Virus genome (UHGV): UHGV-0072853
DNA length: 10,782 bases
Source: a virus
Reading direction: 5' to 3' (one strand)
Shown here: piece by piece, positions 1,194-10,498 of the stretch
How the letters are laid out: each line of letters opens with the position of its first letter
Numbering within the stretch: the first letter of the stretch is position 1
Translations under genes and position numbers: made by a program
The notes under the pieces: model-generated
Told to the model about the DNA's origin: nothing
What the model saw: only the letters and a program-made list of their open reading frames with translations
Database searches by the model: none

Positions 1194-1355
1194 ATGACAA
1201 AACGTCGTAAGAAATACCAGGAAAAAGAAGAGATTCGACACCCTGATTCACCTGAGGGATTAGTGGTAGCCGCAGCAAATAACAGGGCGTTCGCAGAGCG
1301 CCTTGTTGGTGTTTACAGACTAGCCAAAGCAGGAGTGAAACATGGGCGTCGTTAA
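1194..1355 (+). CDS. Small basic hypothetical protein (53 aa) between cII and the replication initiator
   Basis: ATG at 1194 with GGAG 7 nt upstream; own translation [53 protein letters not shown], stop TAA at 1353..1355. Below the ORF-track size cut-off. Positionally analogous to the small ORF between c1 and gene 18 in P22-like phages. Confidence 0.4.
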   Translation: MTKRRKKYQEKEEIRHPDSPEGLVVAAANNRAFAERLVGVYRLAKAGVKHGRR

Positions 1356-2163
1356 GTTAGCTGATTACAGGCCTCAACTGGAGGTCGTGGAGCATCGCGT
1401 GGCAGATACCGAAGATGGTTTCATGCGCGTTGCTAACGAGATTACCGACAGTCTGCTGATGGCTGATTTAACCGTCCGGCAGATGAAGGTGATGCTCGCT
1501 ATCATGCGCAAGACATACGGATTCAATAAGCCGATGGATCGACTCACAAACACGCAGATAGCAGCCATGACAGGTATTCATCACACTCATGTTTGCGCTG
1601 CCAAGCGCCAGCTTATTGAGCGTAAATTCCTCATTGCTGATGGCGTGAAAATCGGAGTGAACAAGGTGGTTTCTCAGTGGATTAGCCAGGACAGCTTAAC
1701 ATTAGCTAAAACAGCTAATAAAACATTAGCCAAGTCGGCTAATGGGTATAAGCCAAGTCAGCTAAACACAAAAGACAATATACAAAAGACAATAAATACA
1801 AATACCCCCTTACCCCCTAGCGGGGGCGGCGATGGGCAGGTTAAACCTGAACGTCGCAAGGCAGAACGAATCGACTACGAATCCTTCCTGAACGCCTACA
1901 ACACCGAAGTCGGTGACAGACTTCCACACGCTGTTGCGGTCAACGAGAAACGAAAACGCCGCCTGAAGAAAATCATTCCGCAACTGAAAACGCCAAACGT
2001 GGACGGTTTCAGAGCGTATGTCAGGGCGTTTGTGCATCAGGCCAAGCCGTTTTACTTCGGAGACAACGACACTGGCTGGACGGCAGATTTTGATTACCTG
2101 CTGAGGGAAGATTCGTTAACGGGAGTACGGGAAGGGAAGTTTGCAGACAGGGGGATTGCATGA
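1342..2163 (+). CDS. Replication initiator, lambda O-like N-terminal domain (273 aa)
   Basis: AGGAG 7 nt upstream of the ATG. The N-terminal region [37 protein letters not shown] resembles lambda O (DLTKRQFKVLLAILRKTYGWNKPMDRITDSQLSEIT). Iteron-like repeats lie inside the gene. The stop overlaps the helicase start (ATGA at 2160..2163). Confidence 0.8.
1681..1826. repeat. Putative origin of replication: four ~20-bp iteron-like direct repeats, an AT-rich tract and a C5/G5 hairpin inside the O-like gene
   Basis: Repeats ATTAGCCAGGACAGCTTAAC (1681..1700), ATTAGCTAAAACAGCTAATA (1701..1720), ATTAGCCAAGTCGGCTAAT (1725..1743) and TAAGCCAAGTCAGCTAAAC (1749..1767), then an A-rich tract (1768..1805), then CCCCCTAGCGGGGG (1807..1826). 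Same organisation as lambda ori within O. Confidence 0.65.
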
Positions 2164-3536
2164 GACAGGATATCGAAGCGAGCGTTATCGGTGGCTTGCT
2201 GATTGGTGGATTAACACCAACCGCCAGCGACGTTCTGGCAACGCTGGAGCCGGAAGCGTTTTCAATTCCGCTCTACCGGAAAGCCTTCGAGGTTATCCGC
2301 AAGCAGGCGAGAAACAGAAACCTAATCGACGCGCTGATGGTTGCCGAGGCGTGCGGAGAGGAGCATTTCACGTCAATCCTGATGACCAGCAAAAACTGCC
2401 CGAGTGCCGCAAACCTGAAGGGATATGCCGGAATGGTCGCGGATAACTATCACCGCCGTCTGGTGCTGGAAATCATGGATGAAATGCGTGAACCAATTCA
2501 GAGCGGAACCATCGACGCATCGAGTCAGGCGATGGATGAGCTTGTAAAGCGTCTTTCAGCCATCAGAAAGCCCCGTGACGAGGTTAAACCGGTACGGTTA
2601 GGGGAAATCATCACCGACTACACTGACACGCTTGACAGGCGTCTGAGGAACGGAGAAGAGTCAGATACCCTGAAGACCGGAATCGAAGAACTTGATGCCA
2701 TCACCGGAGGGATGAACGCGGAAGACCTGGTGATAATCGCTGCTCGTCCTGGTATGGGGAAAACCGAACTGGCTCTGAAGATTGCCGAAGGCGTTGCAAG
2801 CCGCGTTATTCCTGGTTCTGACGTCCGGCGCGGGGTATTGATTTTCTCAATGGAAATGAGCGCATTGCAGATTGCAGAGCGAAGCATCGCCAACGCCGGG
2901 AGGATGTCGGTTAGCGTGCTGCGAAATCCTGCATCGATGGATGACGAAGGCTGGGCGCGTGTTGCTAACGGCATGAGTCAGCTTGCAGATTTGGATGTAT
3001 GGGTAGTCGATGCCTCGCGGTTATCGGTCGAAGAAATACGCTCAATCGCAGAACGGCACAAACAGGAAAATCCAAACCTGTCACTCATCATGGCGGATTA
3101 TCTTGGCCTGATTGAGAAGCCGAAAGCAGACCGCAACGACCTCGCAATTGCTCACATCTCCGGAAGCCTGAAGGCGATGGCGAAAGACCTGAAAACGCCC
3201 GTTATCTCCCTGAGTCAGCTTTCGCGCGATGTTGAGAAGCGACCAAACAAACGCCCGACAAACGCAGATTTGCGTGATTCAGGAAGCATTGAACAGGACG
3301 CAGACTCAATCATCATGCTCTATCGGGAAGCTGTATATGACGAGAACAGTAGCGCCGCGCCATTTGCTGAAATCATTGTGACGAAAAACCGTTTTGGCTC
3401 ACTTGGTACGGTTTACCAGCGGTTCTGCAACGGACACTTTGTTGCATGTGACCAGGATGAAGCCAGACAGATTTGCACAACATCAAATGCACCTGCTGCA
3501 CGTGGCAGACGATATGCACAAGGGGCTGACGTATGA
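2160..3536 (+). CDS. DnaB-family replicative DNA helicase (458 aa)
   Basis: Walker A-like GMGKT ([18 protein letters not shown]) and DnaB-like C-terminal motifs ([41 protein letters not shown]). Length and position after the O-like gene match the P22 gene 18 / gene 12 arrangement. Confidence 0.85.
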
Positions 3537-3609: not shown

Positions 3610-4050
3610 ATGAAAAAACTAACCTTTGAAATTCGATCTCCAGCACATCAGCAAAACGCTATTCACGCGGTACAGCAAATTCTTCCAGACCCAACCAAAC
3701 CAATCGTAGTAACCATTCAGGAGCGCAACCGCAGCTTAGACCAAAATCGGAAGCTTTGGGCTTGCCTTGGTGACGTTTCGCGTCAGGTTGAATGGCATGG
3801 TCGCTGGCTGGATGCAGAAAGCTGGAAGTGTGTGTTTACCGCAGCATTAAAGCAGCAGGACGTTGTTCCTAACCTTGCCGGGAATGGCTTTGTGGTAATA
3901 GGCCAGTCAACCAGCAGGATGCGTGTAAGCGAATTTGCGGAGCTATTAGAGCTTATACAGGCATTCGGTACAGAGCGTGGCGTTAAGTGGTCAGACGAAG
4001 CGCGACTGGCTCTGGAGTGGAAAGCGAGATGGGGAGACAGGGCTGCATGA
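3610..4050 (+). CDS. ninB: NinB recombination protein (146 aa)
   Basis: Translation MKKLTFEIRSPAHQQNAIHAVQQILPDPTKPIVVTIQERNRSLDQNRKLWACLGDVSRQVEWHGRWLD... matches my memory of lambda NinB; length 146 aa as in lambda. G-rich RBS upstream of the ATG at 3610. The supplied ORF starts 18 nt earlier in frame. Confidence 0.88.
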   Translation: MKKLTFEIRSPAHQQNAIHAVQQILPDPTKPIVVTIQERNRSLDQNRKLWACLGDVSRQVEWHGRWLDAESWKCVFTAALKQQDVVPNLAGNGFVVIGQSTSRMRVSEFAELLELIQAFGTERGVKWSDEARLALEWKARWGDRAA

Positions 4051-4892
4051 TAAATGTCGTTAGTTTCTCCGGTGGCAGGACGTCAGCATATTTGCTCTGG
4101 CTAATGGAGCAAAAGCGACGGGCAGGTAAAGACGTGCATTACGTTTTCATGGATACAGGGGCAGAGCACCCTAAAACATATGAGTTCATCCGAAATATCG
4201 TCAGTAACTGGGAAATAGACTTACATTGCCTTCGTGTAATACCTAATCCAGAAATGGGGAAGGCCAGTAGTTATGAAGAGATAGGTGTCAATGATATTGG
4301 TCCAGATCTTATACCGTGGAAAAGGATGTTGAATAAATACGGACATCCATATATCGGCGGTGCGTTCTGTACCGACAGAATGAAGTCTGTTCCATTCACC
4401 AAATATTGTCAGGAAAAGTTTGGGAAAGGAAATTACATCACATGGCTTGGCATTCGCACAGATGAACCAAACAGGATTAAAAGGGCTAATGGTTTTCGGT
4501 ACCTGGCTGATATAAGCGATTTTGAAAAACAGGATGTGCTTGATTGGTGGAGTGAGCAGAAGTTTGATCTTGGCATACAGGAGCATCTTGGTAATTGTGT
4601 TTTCTGCATAAAAAAAAGTATGCAAAAGGTGGCGCTGGCAGCCATGGATGAGCCAGAACTTGCAGATGCATTTATCAACATCCTTGATACAGAAATAAAA
4701 ACAGGAAAGGAACCGGTTATGTATCGAGGGAATAATACACTTAAATCACTGATTGCCTTGTTTAGTGATATATCAAGAGATGAGTTAGCCTCAAGAATGA
4801 CATCAATGCGACAGTATGATTCAGGTTCGTGTTCTGAATCATGTGAAGCATTTTCATGTCAGCTTGGATTTAATTTTGAGGATGTGGCATGA
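4047..4892 (+). CDS. ninC: NinC-like protein, PP-loop / PAPS-reductase-fold family (281 aa)
   Basis: ATG at 4047 overlaps the ninB stop (ATGA). N-terminal PP-loop-like motif [16 protein letters not shown]; Cys motifs NCVFCIKK and [12 protein letters not shown]. Position after ninB corresponds to lambda ninC. The supplied ORF 3987..4892 is a 5'-extended version. Confidence 0.75.
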
Positions 4893-5065
4893 GACGACAG
4901 CGACGAAGCATCACCGACATAATCTGTGAAAACTGCAAATACCTTCCAACGAAACGCTCCAGAAATAAACGCAAGCCAATCCCAAAAGAATCTGACGTAA
5001 AAACCTTCAACTACACGGCTCACCTGTGGGATATCCGGTGGCTAAGACATCGTGCGAGGAAATGA
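4889..5065 (+). CDS. ninD: NinD-like small protein (58 aa)
   Basis: Own translation [58 protein letters not shown]; ATG overlaps the ninC stop (ATGA). Cys-x2-Cys and basic composition as I remember for lambda NinD. Below the ORF-track cut-off. Confidence 0.7.
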
Positions 5066-5067
5066 CA

Positions 5068-5427
5068 ATGGATTATTCACAGTTAAGTGATTTTGAAATT
5101 AACGTGGCGGTATTCGAAGCCATTCATAACGGATCACCGGATTACAAAGAAGGTGAGAATGGCGATATGGTGTTTGTCTCATTTGAGGGAGACATTGTAA
5201 ACGGAGACGCAGTTGAAGTAGAAGTTGAGCGCGGTTCCTTTAACCCATGCGCAAACCCAGCAGACGCATGGCCGATTATTGAAAAATACAGGATTAGCAT
5301 TATCAATCTCGATGAAGACGAGTGGGGTGCACGCGGTGTGGCCTACTGTAAATCTAAGCGAGCTATACATGAAAATCCCCTCCGCGCCGCCATGATTGTC
5401 TTTCTCATGATGCAGAGAATCCAATAA
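5068..5427 (+). CDS. Acidic hypothetical protein (119 aa) in the ninE slot, possibly NinX-like
   Basis: GAGGA 7 nt upstream of the ATG at 5068; an in-frame ATG at 5062 overlaps the ninD stop. The first ~95 residues are strongly acidic (many D/E), with a short basic/hydrophobic tail. The stop overlaps the next gene (TAATG). I recognise no known fold. Confidence 0.6.
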   Translation: MDYSQLSDFEINVAVFEAIHNGSPDYKEGENGDMVFVSFEGDIVNGDAVEVEVERGSFNPCANPADAWPIIEKYRISIINLDEDEWGARGVAYCKSKRAIHENPLRAAMIVFLMMQRIQ

Positions 5428-5603
5428 TGCTTAGCCCATCCCAATCCATTCAATACCAGAAAGAAAGCGTCGAGCGAGCTTTAACGTGTGCTAACTGCGG
5501 TCAGAAGCTGCATGTACTGGAAGTTCACGTGTGTGAGCACTGTTGCGCAGAACTTATGAGTGATCCGAATAGCTCAATGTACGAGGAAGAAGATGATGGC
5601 TAA
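5427..5603 (+). CDS. ninF: NinF-like small Cys-rich protein (58 aa)
   Basis: Own translation [58 protein letters not shown]; CxxC...CxxCC zinc-ribbon-like pattern; sits immediately upstream of ninG as lambda ninF does. Below the ORF-track cut-off. Confidence 0.65.
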
Positions 5604-6207
5604 ACCAGCGCGAAGACGATGTAAAAACGAAGAATGTCGGGAATGGTTTCACCCTGCATTCGCTAATCAGTGGTGGTGCTCTCCAGAGTGTGGAACAAAG
5701 ATAGCACTCGAACGACGAAGCAAAGAACGCGAAAAAGCGGAAAAAGCAGCAGAGAAGAAACGACGACGAGAGGAGCAGAAACAGAAAGATAAACTTAAGA
5801 TTCGAAAACTCGCCTTAAAGCCCCGCAGTTACTGGATTAAACAAGCCCAACAAGCCGTAAACGCCTTCATCAGAGAAAGAGACCGCGACTTACCATGTAT
5901 CTCATGCGGAACGATCACGTCTGCTCAGTGGGATGCCGGACATTACCGGACAACTGCTGCGGCACCTCAACTCCGATTTGATGAACGCAATATTCACAAG
6001 CAATGCGTGGTGTGCAACCAGCACAAAAGCGGAAATCTCGTTCCGTATCGCGTCGAACTGATTAGCCGTATCGGGCAGGAAGCAGTAGACGAAATCGAAT
6101 CAAACCATAACCGCCATCGCTGGACTGTCGAAGAGTGCAAGGCGATCAAGGCAGAGTACCAACAGAAACTCAAAGACCTGCGAAATAGCAGAAGTGAGGC
6201 CGCATGA
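5593..6207 (+). CDS. ninG: NinG (Rap) recombination protein (204 aa)
   Basis: [89 protein letters not shown]... matches my memory of lambda NinG/Rap; 204 aa as in lambda. The supplied ORF 5560 start is an upstream GTG in the same frame. Confidence 0.88.
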
Positions 6208-6410
6208 CGTTCTCAGTAAAAACCATTCCAGACATGCTCGTTGAAGCATACGGAAACCAGACAGAAGTAGCACGCAGACTGAAATGTAGTCGCGGTACGG
6301 TCAGAAAATACGTTGATGATAAAGACGGGAAAATGCACGCCATCGTCAACGACGTTCTCATGGTTCATCGCGGATGGAGTGAAAGAGATGCGCTATTACG
6401 AAAGAATTGA
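6204..6410 (+). CDS. ninH: NinH (68 aa)
   Basis: [68 protein letters not shown]; HTH-like, 68 aa; matches lambda NinH in sequence and position. The start overlaps the ninG stop (ATGA). Confidence 0.85.
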
Positions 6411-7059
6411 TGGCAGCAAATACCGAAATATTTGGGTAGTTGGCGATCTGCACGGATGCTACACGAACCTGATGAAAAAACTGGAGACGATAGGATTCGA
6501 CACCAAAAAAGACCTGCTTATCTCGGTTGGCGATTTGGTCGATCGCGGTACAGAGAACGTCGAATGTCTGGAATTAATCACATTCCCCTGGTTCCGAGCT
6601 GTACGTGGAAACCATGAGCAAATGATGATTGATGGCTTATCAGATCGTGGAAACGTCAATCACTGGCTGCTTAATGGCGGTGGCTGGTTCTTCAATCTCG
6701 ATTACGACAAAGAAATTCTGGCTAAAGCTCTTGCCCATAAAGCAGATGAACTTCCGTTAATCATTGAACTGGTGAGCAAAGGTAAAAAATATGTCATCTG
6801 CCACGCCGATTATCCTTGTGACGAATACGAGTTTGGAAAGCCAGTTGATCATCAGCAGGTAATCTGGAACCGCGAACGAATCAGCAACTCACAAGACGGG
6901 ATCGTGAAAGAAATCAAAGGAGCGGACACGTTCATCTTTGGTCATACGCCAGCAGTGAAACCACTCAAGTTTGCCAACCAGATGTATATCGATACCGGCG
7001 CAGTGTTCTGCGGAAACCTCACATTGATTCAGGTACAGGGAGAAGGCGCATGGGCATAA
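6388..7059 (+). CDS. ninI: Ser/Thr protein phosphatase, lambda NinI (PPase) type (223 aa)
   Basis: [38 protein letters not shown]...GDLVDRG...RGNHE: the calcineurin-like metallophosphatase motifs GDxHG, GDxxDRG and GNHE, as in lambda protein phosphatase. ATG at 6388 is inside the supplied longer ORF 6313..7059. Confidence 0.88.
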
Positions 7060-7568
7060 GAGAACTAAACCTCACCAAAGAGCAGCACGAGTGGCTGAAT
7101 GGCTGGCTTGAACTGTGGGGCGCATGGGTTTATTCAGGTCGTCTGGAAAAGCGCATGAGCAGCGTAATAGCGAAGTTCATGGAGAGCGTAGAGCCGGGAA
7201 GAGTTATGACAAGGCCAATGTGCAATGATGATGATGGAATGTTGATTTCTCAGGTCGTCGATTCCGTCATGTACATTGACAAGAAAGCCTTTGGCATCCT
7301 CCTCAGCTACTACGCTCATGGTTCATCTAAGCGAGCAATTGCATCCTACTATCACGCGACTGCAAAGCCACGCAAGATGTGTGGACGTGGTGGCGATGGA
7401 TGGAGAAAACCTTCACTGGCAACCTGTAGAAACGAAATTGACGACATCCTGAAAGCGTCGTTATTTGTTTTGTACCAACCAATGCAAAATGCTTTTAAAA
7501 TGCGTAAACGTGTTGAGAAAGTTAAGCATGTTGCTGTTAAAAGCCTTGACATGCAATTATCCATTTAG
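7050..7568 (+). CDS. Q: Late-gene antiterminator Q, QuuD / 933W / phage 21 family (172 aa)
   Basis: Located between ninI and the lysis cassette. Shares the pattern W-x-x-WGAW ... C-x-DDD-x-M-I ... YY-x-x-G with Q proteins of this family as I remember them (for example E. coli QuuD). Cys/His-rich. The ATG overlaps the ninI stop. Confidence 0.7.
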
Positions 7569-7575
7569 CCATAAT
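7546..7575 (+). promoter_or_regulatory. PR'-like late promoter
   Basis: TTGACA at 7546..7551 and CATAAT at 7570..7575 (18-bp spacer) at the 3' end of Q, upstream of a terminator hairpin: the expected layout for the Q-modified late promoter. Confidence 0.5.
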
Positions 7576-7585
7576 TAGAAGGTAA

Positions 7586-7627
7586 GCTGCCGTTAGTGAC
7601 TCTTAAGTTGCAACGGTGGCTTTTTTT
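7586..7627 (+). terminator. tR'-like intrinsic terminator
   Basis: Imperfect 9-bp stem (GCTGCCGTT / AACGGTGGC, two G-U pairs) with a 17-nt loop, immediately followed by a run of seven T (7621..7627). This would give a short PR' transcript unless Q acts. Confidence 0.55.
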
Positions 7628-8145
7628 GTTTGCACAACAGGTAAGAGCATTGAACCCGCAGACCTCGCGGAATTGGTGAAAGGTGCCGCGCAGTGCTCTT
7701 ATCGTTGTGGTGAATACGCAGGCTGATGCGTTAATCAGGTGAACGAGATACCCGCCGGTCCGTGATATGGCACACCGTGCCGGTCATATCTGCCGCGGTT
7801 AGGTTTACGAGGATTTCGTAAAGCTGGTCTAGGGTGAAGCCGTGAAAGCGGAGGAAGTAAAACGAGGCGTCGGTACACGCCTATCGTCATTAAGTCGGAG
7901 TTCAGCACCGACCGCCACAACCCAAACTGAGCCGTAGCCACTGGCTATCCTGAATTCATCAGTGATAGTTACGCTGCGGCCTTCTACACATGATCTTCGT
8001 GAAAGCGGGTGGCAAGAGGCTGCGCTAACAACCCCCTGCCGTTTTGCCCGTGCATATCGGTCACGAACAAATCTGATTACTAAACACAGTAGCCTGGATT
8101 TGTTCTATCAGTAATCGACCTTATTCCTAATTAAATAGAGCAAAT

Positions 8146-8159
8146 CCCCTTATTGGGGG
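8146..8159 (+). promoter_or_regulatory. Stem-loop CCCC-TTATT-GGGGG upstream of the S dual start (sdi-like)
   Basis: Perfect 4 to 5-bp G/C stem overlapping the S Shine-Dalgarno region, 7 nt upstream of the Met1-Lys2-Met3 dual start, as in lambda S translational control. Confidence 0.5.
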
Positions 8160-8165
8160 TAAGAC

Positions 8166-9603: not shown

Positions 9604-9746
9604 TATCTGAATTTCACAGCGCATCTCACGCGCATATTAACGAGAGCCTTTCAGTAAGCGAGCCTGAGAATTGCCGTTATAGGTGGCGACCTCTCTCGGG
9701 CGGCTTTTCTGTGAGACAGGCTCACTTTCTAAAAGGTAAAGACGCT

Positions 9747-10244
9747 ATGAAAGCAATCACGCTTTTTAATACACCGATCCGTGTTGATGAATCAGGAATG
9801 ATCTGCCTCACTGATATGTGGAAAGCCAGTGGTAAAAGTGAATCTGAATCGCCTTACCACTACCTGCGAAACAAGCAGACCAAAGAGTTCTTAGCCGAGC
9901 TGGAGAAAAACCACGAATCTGTGGTTTTTACTGAGCGCGGTGTACACGGTGGAACATATGGCGGGAAGTTTGTTGCATACGATTATGCGGCTTGGTTAAA
10001 CCCCGGGTTCAAGTACGCGGCCTATAAAGTCCTCGATGACTACTTCACCGGAGAACTTCAGCATCGCAACAGCTTAAGTGCGCAGCTCAACATGAAATGT
10101 CATGAGTTTGACCAGAAGAAAGACATGGCGAGCTTCTGCGGACAAGGGCTGGCAGCATGGCGCTATACGAAGCCAGTGTTGGTCGCTGAGATTAACTCCC
10201 TGGCTAACCAGCTGCAGATTACGATCCCCGGGCTTCCGGGATGA
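9747..10244 (+). CDS. KilA-N domain protein (165 aa)
   Basis: ATG at 9747 with AAGG about 11 nt upstream. MKAITLFNTPIRVDESGMICLTDMWKASGK...GGTYGGKFVAYDYAAWLNPGF fits the KilA-N / APSES-like DNA-binding domain pattern. The supplied ORF 9504..10244 has an 81-codon 5' extension that I consider non-coding, since it contains the terminator. Confidence 0.65.
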   Translation: MKAITLFNTPIRVDESGMICLTDMWKASGKSESESPYHYLRNKQTKEFLAELEKNHESVVFTERGVHGGTYGGKFVAYDYAAWLNPGFKYAAYKVLDDYFTGELQHRNSLSAQLNMKCHEFDQKKDMASFCGQGLAAWRYTKPVLVAEINSLANQLQITIPGLPG

Positions 10245-10498
10245 GTGATCGTGTCATTGAATGCGCCTCCAGAGCGGGGCGCGACTTCTCAGAGTTCATG
10301 AAAGGCGAGAAGGGCATGATGGAAGCATTGGCCTCGGTGGATGAGTTTGGCGAGCAGCTGCGCCTCAACGGCTGTGTCAATCATCACTTTGTTAGCTACA
10401 TGATGCGGAACTCGATCATGCAGGCATTCATGGACATGGCAAAAGCCGAGAGGAAAGAAGAGCGCCGGCGTAAGCGAGCGGAAGCAAAAGCGAAGTAG
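10241..10498 (+). CDS. Hypothetical charged protein (85 aa), translationally coupled to the KilA-N gene
   Basis: ATG overlaps the KilA-N stop (ATGA at 10241..10244). Acidic N-terminal two-thirds and a strongly basic tail (KAERKEERRRKRAEAKAK). I recognise no domain. Confidence 0.55.
   Translation: MSDRVIECASRAGRDFSEFMKGEKGMMEALASVDEFGEQLRLNGCVNHHFVSYMMRNSIMQAFMDMAKAERKEERRRKRAEAKAK

Follow-up and report, generated by a model that had tools for sequence, protein, structure and literature searches.

The locus at positions 5062-5427 of the virus genome UHGV-0072853 raises the question of what an acidic protein of 119 residues is doing in an otherwise lambda-like nin region. In the window, by which we mean the whole stretch of 10,782 nucleotides analysed here, the original prediction had placed this protein in the slot of ninE and proposed, as a hypothesis, that it mimics DNA and inhibits host restriction or other DNA-binding defence proteins. 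We found that the gene is ninX, an already catalogued and very common gene at its usual place. The annotation is routine, and the check serves mainly to correct: ninE has not been displaced, the acidity is a trait of one allele, and DNA mimicry is unsupported. NinX is a widespread lambdoid accessory protein, and the functional leads come from its architecture of swappable cassettes and from a chromosomal homologue in the Yersinia and Serratia group.

The window belongs to a lambdoid E. coli phage or prophage, and ninX lies in its delayed-early nin operon. The genes of this region are arranged as follows:

3610-4050, NinB, 99% identical to lambda
4047-4892, plus strand, PAPS-reductase NinC homologue, 57% identical to lambda
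4889-5065, plus strand, ninE, 58 aa, Pfam PF05322 with E 7e-44, 94.6% identical to lambda NinE
5056-5059, plus strand, GAGG Shine-Dalgarno-like motif, 8 nt before ATG 5068, read from the sequence
5068-5427, plus strand, ninX coding sequence, 119 aa plus stop (PF10765, PHROG 444, RefSeq start and homologue starts)
5427-5603, plus strand, ninF, 58 aa, Pfam NinF with E 1.8e-12, 88.7% identical to lambda NinF
5596-6207, NinG, 98% identical to lambda
6204-6410, NinH, 100% identical to lambda
6385-7059, NinI, 96% identical to lambda
7050-7568, Q, Pfam Phage_antitermQ

The gene at 4889-5065 had been read as ninD, but both the Pfam match and the comparison with lambda identify it as ninE. An intact ninE is thus present directly upstream, the 119-aa ORF has no NinE match, and the view that this ORF occupies the ninE slot was mistaken. 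NinE is present, the ninD of lambda is absent from the window, and the 119-aa ORF comes in addition, lying between ninE and ninF. A direct comparison with the nin region of lambda found no NinX-like sequence there. The order ninE-ninX-ninF is of the P22 type and is common to the window, ST104, CUS-3, and the prophage of E. coli VR50; in the P22-type phage ST104, the full order is ninB-ninD-ninE-ninX-ninF-ninG-ninY-ninH-ninZ-23. The P22 nin genes, which include ninX, are described as tightly packed with ATGA overlaps, non-essential, and of largely unknown function (PMC8022706).

Several other features of the window were observed. The replication module (1342-3536, plus strand) consists of a lambda-O-like initiator and a DnaB-type helicase of the P22 gene 12 type, not lambda P; this O and DnaB-type module, the lambda-like nin genes, and the P22-type ninX together make the window a typical lambdoid mosaic. 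The closest phage is HK446, with 73% coverage and 97% identity. The plus-strand gene at the NinC position (4047-4892) encodes a PAPS-reductase domain whose identity to lambda is 57%, while its neighbours reach 89-100%, and its product additionally hits the PAPS-reductase modules in the defence-system models of SspD, BrxP, and DndC. NinF carries a net charge of -8 over 58 aa with a pI of 4.43 and contains a Cys-rich CxxC...CxxC motif. Between Q and the holin gene lies a gap of about 600 bp (7569-8165) with no credible ORF, tRNA, or Rfam match, presumably the site of the late promoter and terminator; in the VR50 prophage, which is similar in other respects, an HNH endonuclease gene stands here. 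After the lysis cassette comes a plus-strand gene (9744-10244) for a protein with KilA-N and ORF11CD3 domains and a weak match to the PADLOC candidate PDC-S22, and it is followed by an 85-aa ORF without a family match (10241-10498, plus strand); both occupy a typical accessory slot.

Two in-frame start codons are available to ninX: ATG 5062 gives 121 aa (MTMDYSQ...) and ATG 5068 gives 119 aa (MDYSQ...). The interval 5062-5427 had been described as encoding 119 aa; its stop at 5427 and its plus strand are correct, but its length is not, as the interval encodes 121 aa. The start at 5068 is the one used by RefSeq (WP_000386657.1) in the 100% identical prophage of E. coli VR50, and in a search of 1.8 billion representative proteins nearly all homologues start at query residue 3, which corresponds to ATG 5068. 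The GAGG motif listed above is the putative ribosome-binding signal of the gene. ATG 5062 overlaps the TGA stop of ninE (ATGA) and the ninX stop overlaps the ATG of ninF (TAATG), and the ninX frame therefore overlaps both of its neighbours. In a scan of 4500-6000, we found no terminator-like site around ninX and no promoter-like site of its own; the sole promoter-like match in this interval, at the start of ninE, is within chance expectation. Rfam and tRNA scans returned nothing relevant within or near the gene. The other ORFs inside 5062-5427 (5142-5306 and 5179-5424 on the minus strand, 5225-5395 on the plus strand) were dismissed as noise. Some assemblies carry NinE-NinX fusion ORFs or N-terminally extended forms of NinX, such as P0001 (179 aa), P0005 (151 aa), and P0156 (229 aa), probably owing to a frameshift or a miscall where the two genes meet at ATGA.

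The identity of the protein follows from several libraries. The NinX of the window matches the Pfam family PF10765, Phage_P22_NinX (formerly DUF2591), over the full profile (positions 1-114 of 114) with an E-value of 3.8e-19 and 69.5 bits, the gathering cut-off of this family being 22.6 bits; all of the 112 aligned relatives match the same family. It also matches PHROG 444, labelled "unknown function", with an E-value of 8.4e-42, and the same DNA is annotated as NinX or DUF2591 in phage and RefSeq records. The fallback offered by the original prediction, a NinX-type protein of P22-like nin regions, is hence confirmed by the full-length PF10765 and PHROG 444 matches, the existing NinX annotations, and the gene order of ST104. 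The motifs SD[FL]E[IV]N, CxNPxDAWPII, and NPLRAAM[IV], nearly invariant in the family alignment, are all present in the protein. NCBIfam has no model that matches it, and PADLOC gave no match for NinX, NinE, or NinF.

The gene is abundant. Under the name "phage protein NinX family protein", the identical 119-aa sequence is recorded on at least 1000 contigs, and its DNA is 100% identical in the VR50 prophage. Among 5426 complete E. coli genomes, NinX-like DNA, counted as a match to part of the gene, is found in 1082, and the full-length allele of the window in 225. The family comprises 695 clusters at 50% identity with an E-value of at most 1e-3. One member has an extra C-terminal extension of about 125 aa without a Pfam match. 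Our literature search on NinX, DUF2591, PF10765, 1R7L, 4PUP, and nin anti-defence returned annotation tables and genome descriptions, and a functional study was not found.

We predicted the structure of NinX with AlphaFold2 from an alignment of 112 diverse homologues, and the model has a mean pLDDT of 95.7 and a pTM of 0.85. The protein is predicted to be a single soluble alpha/beta domain in which a helix (8-20), three strands (26-28, 34-44, and 47-58), a second helix (64-73), three further strands (77-80, 86-92, and 95-101), and a third helix (104-117) follow one another; the pLDDT of the C-terminal helix exceeds 90. Among the matches listed, the only convincing PDB neighbours are 4PUP, from Burkholderia cenocepacia J2315, and 1R7L, a phage protein of Bacillus cereus ATCC 14579, and Foldseek concurs. 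The model superposes over its full length, with a significant score, on the fold group of these two entries, which comprises small phage alpha/beta sandwich proteins. Their sequence identity to NinX is 15-18%, and neither was detected among PDB sequences at E<=10 by phmmer or by the 112-sequence profile, which returned chance-level matches only. The two structures carry no functional information, because their entry descriptions state no function. A Foldseek search against the predicted viral structures of BFVD matched only uncharacterised phage proteins, and no enzyme family or catalytic fold was matched in Pfam, NCBIfam, or the fold searches.

An entropy profile computed from the alignment of 112 diverse members divides the protein into alternating conserved and variable parts:

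5068-5115, plus strand, conserved N-terminal segment and helix 1 (residues 1-16, Y..SDFEIN..V), low column entropy
5116-5238, plus strand, variable cassette beta1 (residues 17-57) with the acidic run DYKEGENGDMVFVSFEGDIVNGDAVEVEVE, near-maximal column entropy and indels
5239-5301, plus strand, conserved central segment and helix 2 (residues 58-78, F-[DN]-P-C-x-N-P-x-D-A-W-P-I-I ... I), low entropy
5302-5373, plus strand, variable cassette beta2 (residues 79-102), high entropy
5374-5424, plus strand, conserved C-terminal helix 3 (residues 103-119, NPLRAAMIVFLMMQ), the most conserved columns of the family

The conserved columns of the 112 sequences form three blocks (residues 3-16, 58-78, and 103-117, the last being NPLRAAMIVFLMMQ) that coincide with the helices and their caps. 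Both beta meanders (17-57 and 79-102) show near-maximal column entropy and many indels. Taken together, the assignment of the 119-aa ORF to ninX of the lambdoid nin operon, as a member of PF10765, and its anatomy of helices and beta cassettes are, as a joint reading, very probably correct. In the model of a distant member, P0242 (33% identical), the three helices and the beta2 sheet are kept with high confidence, and the beta1 region is poorly ordered, with a block-mean pLDDT of 54-67.

The segment from beta1 through FNPCANP (5116-5260) shows similarity to the final strands of the Big_13/Big_7 Ig-like domains that are repeated in a giant surface protein, P0137 (2304 aa). The shared pattern is V.V.F.A.D.N..VEC..DGG.F.PC.SP; the phmmer E-value of 1.3e-14 is summed over nine repeats, and the best pairwise BLAST value is 4e-5. 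This resemblance may reflect chance, convergence, or a hint on the origin of the cassette. A cadherin-like Ca-binding motif, suggested by weak PDB matches to the protocadherin "DYDEGENG", was discarded, with E-values of 0.4-1.5 and a segment that is not conserved in the family.

Comparison of ninX alleles at the DNA level locates the boundaries of the variable parts. In the first alignment block (10 residues, from ATG 5062), the ninX genes of ST104, CUS-3, and HK446 are 100% identical to the window at the nucleotide level. In ST104 and CUS-3, the identity drops within the second alignment block and the middle of the gene is at random level; the DNA of the C-terminal helix is 90-96% identical to that of otherwise unrelated ninX alleles. 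The HK446 allele is a chimera: it matches the window at 99% identity as far as 5279, in the central DAWPII helix, and is unrelated beyond. Since its identity ends at 5279, a recombination joint lies inside the central conserved segment.

The two cassettes also occur in many combinations. Among 116 close relatives, the acidic beta1 of the window is joined to 13 types of beta2, of which about 12 are real; the one rejected type is the +1 frame of the same DNA and probably a frameshifted assembly, not a genuine cassette. Conversely, the P22-type and CUS-3-type beta2 are found both behind a beta1 of the window type and behind their own, different beta1. The cassettes therefore assort independently, and the alignments indicate that recombination inside the conserved helix-coding DNA exchanges beta1 and beta2 separately. 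The alleles are either almost identical to one another or saturated with differences. The exchange pattern agrees with diversifying selection acting on two surface modules, and it also agrees with relaxed constraint combined with recombination that is limited to conserved DNA, in which case no arms race is needed.

In data with one genome per species, full-length NinX homologues are found mostly in the nin regions of Enterobacterales prophages, flanked by O/DnaB-type replication genes on one side and NinG/Q on the other. The place of ninX in the nin order varies from one prophage to another, so that no fixed partner gene emerges and ninX behaves as an independent module. One relative occupies a different setting: P0125 (L002 5001-5366), which is 44% identical to NinX and has a related acidic beta1 cassette, lies between O-antigen modification genes of the gtrA/glycosyltransferase type and a phage integrase, a moron-like position at the prophage end and not in a nin region.

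A gene of the NinX family, about 100 aa long (PF10765, E 4.9e-12), also occupies a non-prophage chromosomal site in about 40 species of the Serratia and Yersinia group. These loci (L110-L163) include Yersinia pestis (L139, 4887-5186), Serratia marcescens (L161, 4887-5189), and about 38 more, and their synteny is yobH on the minus strand, mgrB, yebO, the ninX-like gene, a DUF4060 ORF, and an amino-acid permease. The encoded proteins have a short loop instead of beta1 and keep the helices and beta2; the acidic cassette is therefore dispensable for the function of the conserved core. The chromosomal gene looks vertically inherited, and the conserved core is apparently working in a cellular context. 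Such a vertically inherited homologue suggests that the core may have a role in the cell unrelated to phage-host conflict.

How NinX acts can be considered against these observations. We tentatively favour, as a possibility, that NinX serves as an accessory protein with neither enzymatic activity nor affinity for nucleic acids and that it would work by stoichiometric protein binding, in host interference or counter-defence without DNA mimicry. The invariant part, made up of the helical core and beta2, would provide a constant contact or a scaffold, the swappable beta cassettes would present variable surfaces toward a variable factor of the host or of a competing phage, and the outcome would be interference with the host or counter-defence by a route other than imitation of DNA. 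Binding of nucleic acids is unlikely because the protein is acidic and has a single conserved basic residue, R106.

The main rival to this protein-binding reading is that only the invariant three-helix face matters, that this face binds a conserved protein of the cell or the phage, for example in replication or recombination as its nin neighbours do, and that the variability of the beta cassettes is neutral drift which recombination has redistributed. We regard this as possible but rather doubtful. The helices are extremely conserved on all faces, the syntenic homologue in the approximately 40 Yersinia and Serratia group species retains them with beta2 and drops beta1, and ninX stands among genes that serve recombination and replication (NinB, NinG, and the DnaB-like helicase). 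However, no co-varying or fixed neighbour gene was found, as the nin order is shuffled, and the many discrete and ancient cassette types within one host species exceed what simple drift predicts, although this point is not decisive.

A more specific form of the counter-defence reading treats NinX as a modular specificity protein in which the three helices are a scaffold and each cassette recognises a different factor of the host or a rival phage, e.g., a defence protein. We judge this unlikely. Were it true, lambdoid phages would reassort the cassettes at conserved helix-coding DNA to track host diversity, and NinX would be a counter-defence adaptor with a combinatorial logic like that of HsdS.

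Also unlikely, in our estimate, is a small-molecule binder or minimal enzyme, for example a sponge for signalling nucleotides, with a pocket built from the invariant S7, D8, N12, C61, D66, W68, N103, and R106. This near-invariant polar and aromatic set, which includes Cys, Trp, and Arg, is conserved in at least 90% of the diverse members, but several of its residues belong to helix-capping N-P or D-P motifs and could be there for structural reasons alone, and no enzyme or known sponge matches the fold.

The charge of the protein bears on the DNA-mimic explanation, by which an acidic surface of the Ocr/ArdA type would imitate the DNA backbone and titrate defence proteins that bind DNA, among them type I restriction enzymes. 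The NinX of the window has a pI of 4.42, with 21 D+E against 10 K+R and a net charge of -11; the first ~97 residues have a net charge of -14 and the last 24 of +3. The proteins to be compared are the following:

T7 Ocr, 117 aa, net charge -28
NinX of the window, 119 aa, net charge -11
P22-type NinX, 113 aa, net charge -6
NinF neighbour, 58 aa, net charge -8

The protein had been called strongly acidic with a basic and hydrophobic tail. It is acidic, but its charge density of -0.09 per residue, against -0.24 in Ocr, is below those of Ocr and NinF and does not justify "strongly"; likewise, the final residues are basic as described, but they are the most conserved helix of the fold and not an appended tail. 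Nearly all of the acidity is in one beta segment, beta1. Measured between sequence anchors (residues 13-60) in 119 representatives of the family, the net charge of this segment is -9 in the window, with a family median of -1 and a range from -10 to +6, and it is -9 or below in only two of them. The acidity belongs to one allele of the beta1 cassette and not to the NinX family, whose median pI is 4.69 and whose median net charge over the whole protein is -7.

With these values, a DNA mimic is very unlikely. The acidity of the protein and the mild acidity of the family speak for it, as do the small size of ninX, its early expression, its non-essential nature and accessory location, and the existence of an older relative of the acidic beta1 cassette in P0125. 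Against it, the charge density is well under that of Ocr and is surpassed by the adjoining NinF, the acidic residues fall within a hypervariable cassette whose family median is near neutral, the P22-type allele is only about half as charged, the Yersinia homologue lacks the beta1 cassette, and the conserved residues are mostly hydrophobic or helix-capping rather than acidic arrays. Known DNA mimics of the Ocr/ArdA type were absent among the sequence and fold matches listed, where 4PUP and 1R7L were the only convincing PDB neighbours. The DNA-mimic reading of the original prediction thus finds no backing in homology, fold, charge density, or conservation of acidic residues. A dsRBD-like nucleic-acid binder, with two alpha-beta-beta-beta-alpha units sharing the middle helix, is extremely unlikely given the acidic pI and the one conserved basic residue of NinX, which does not combine this fold with the conserved basic RNA-contact residues of a dsRBD.

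Compared with known systems, the NinX of the window is nearest to P22 NinX, which belongs to the same family, has the same size, contains the SDFEIN, CxNPxDAWPII, and NPLRAAM motifs, and is located between ninE and ninF in the early-right operon; the difference lies in both beta cassettes of P22 and ST104, which are unlike those of the window, with the mid-gene identity at about random level. In the case of lambda NinE, the operon and the neighbourhood are in common, but the sequence is unrelated to the 119-aa ORF. T7 Ocr (gp0.3) is likewise a small, early, acidic phage protein of near-equal length (117 vs 119 aa); however, its net charge is -28 instead of -11, it has no sequence similarity to NinX and is absent among the fold matches listed, and the acidic residues of NinX are not conserved.

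The HsdS subunit of type I restriction systems has two variable modules located between conserved helical segments, and recombination in these segments reassorts the modules. There is no homology between HsdS and NinX, the size and the fold are different, and a specificity of the NinX cassettes is an analogy only; the likeness is architectural, in that both proteins carry variable modules that are flanked by conserved helices and reassorted by recombination.
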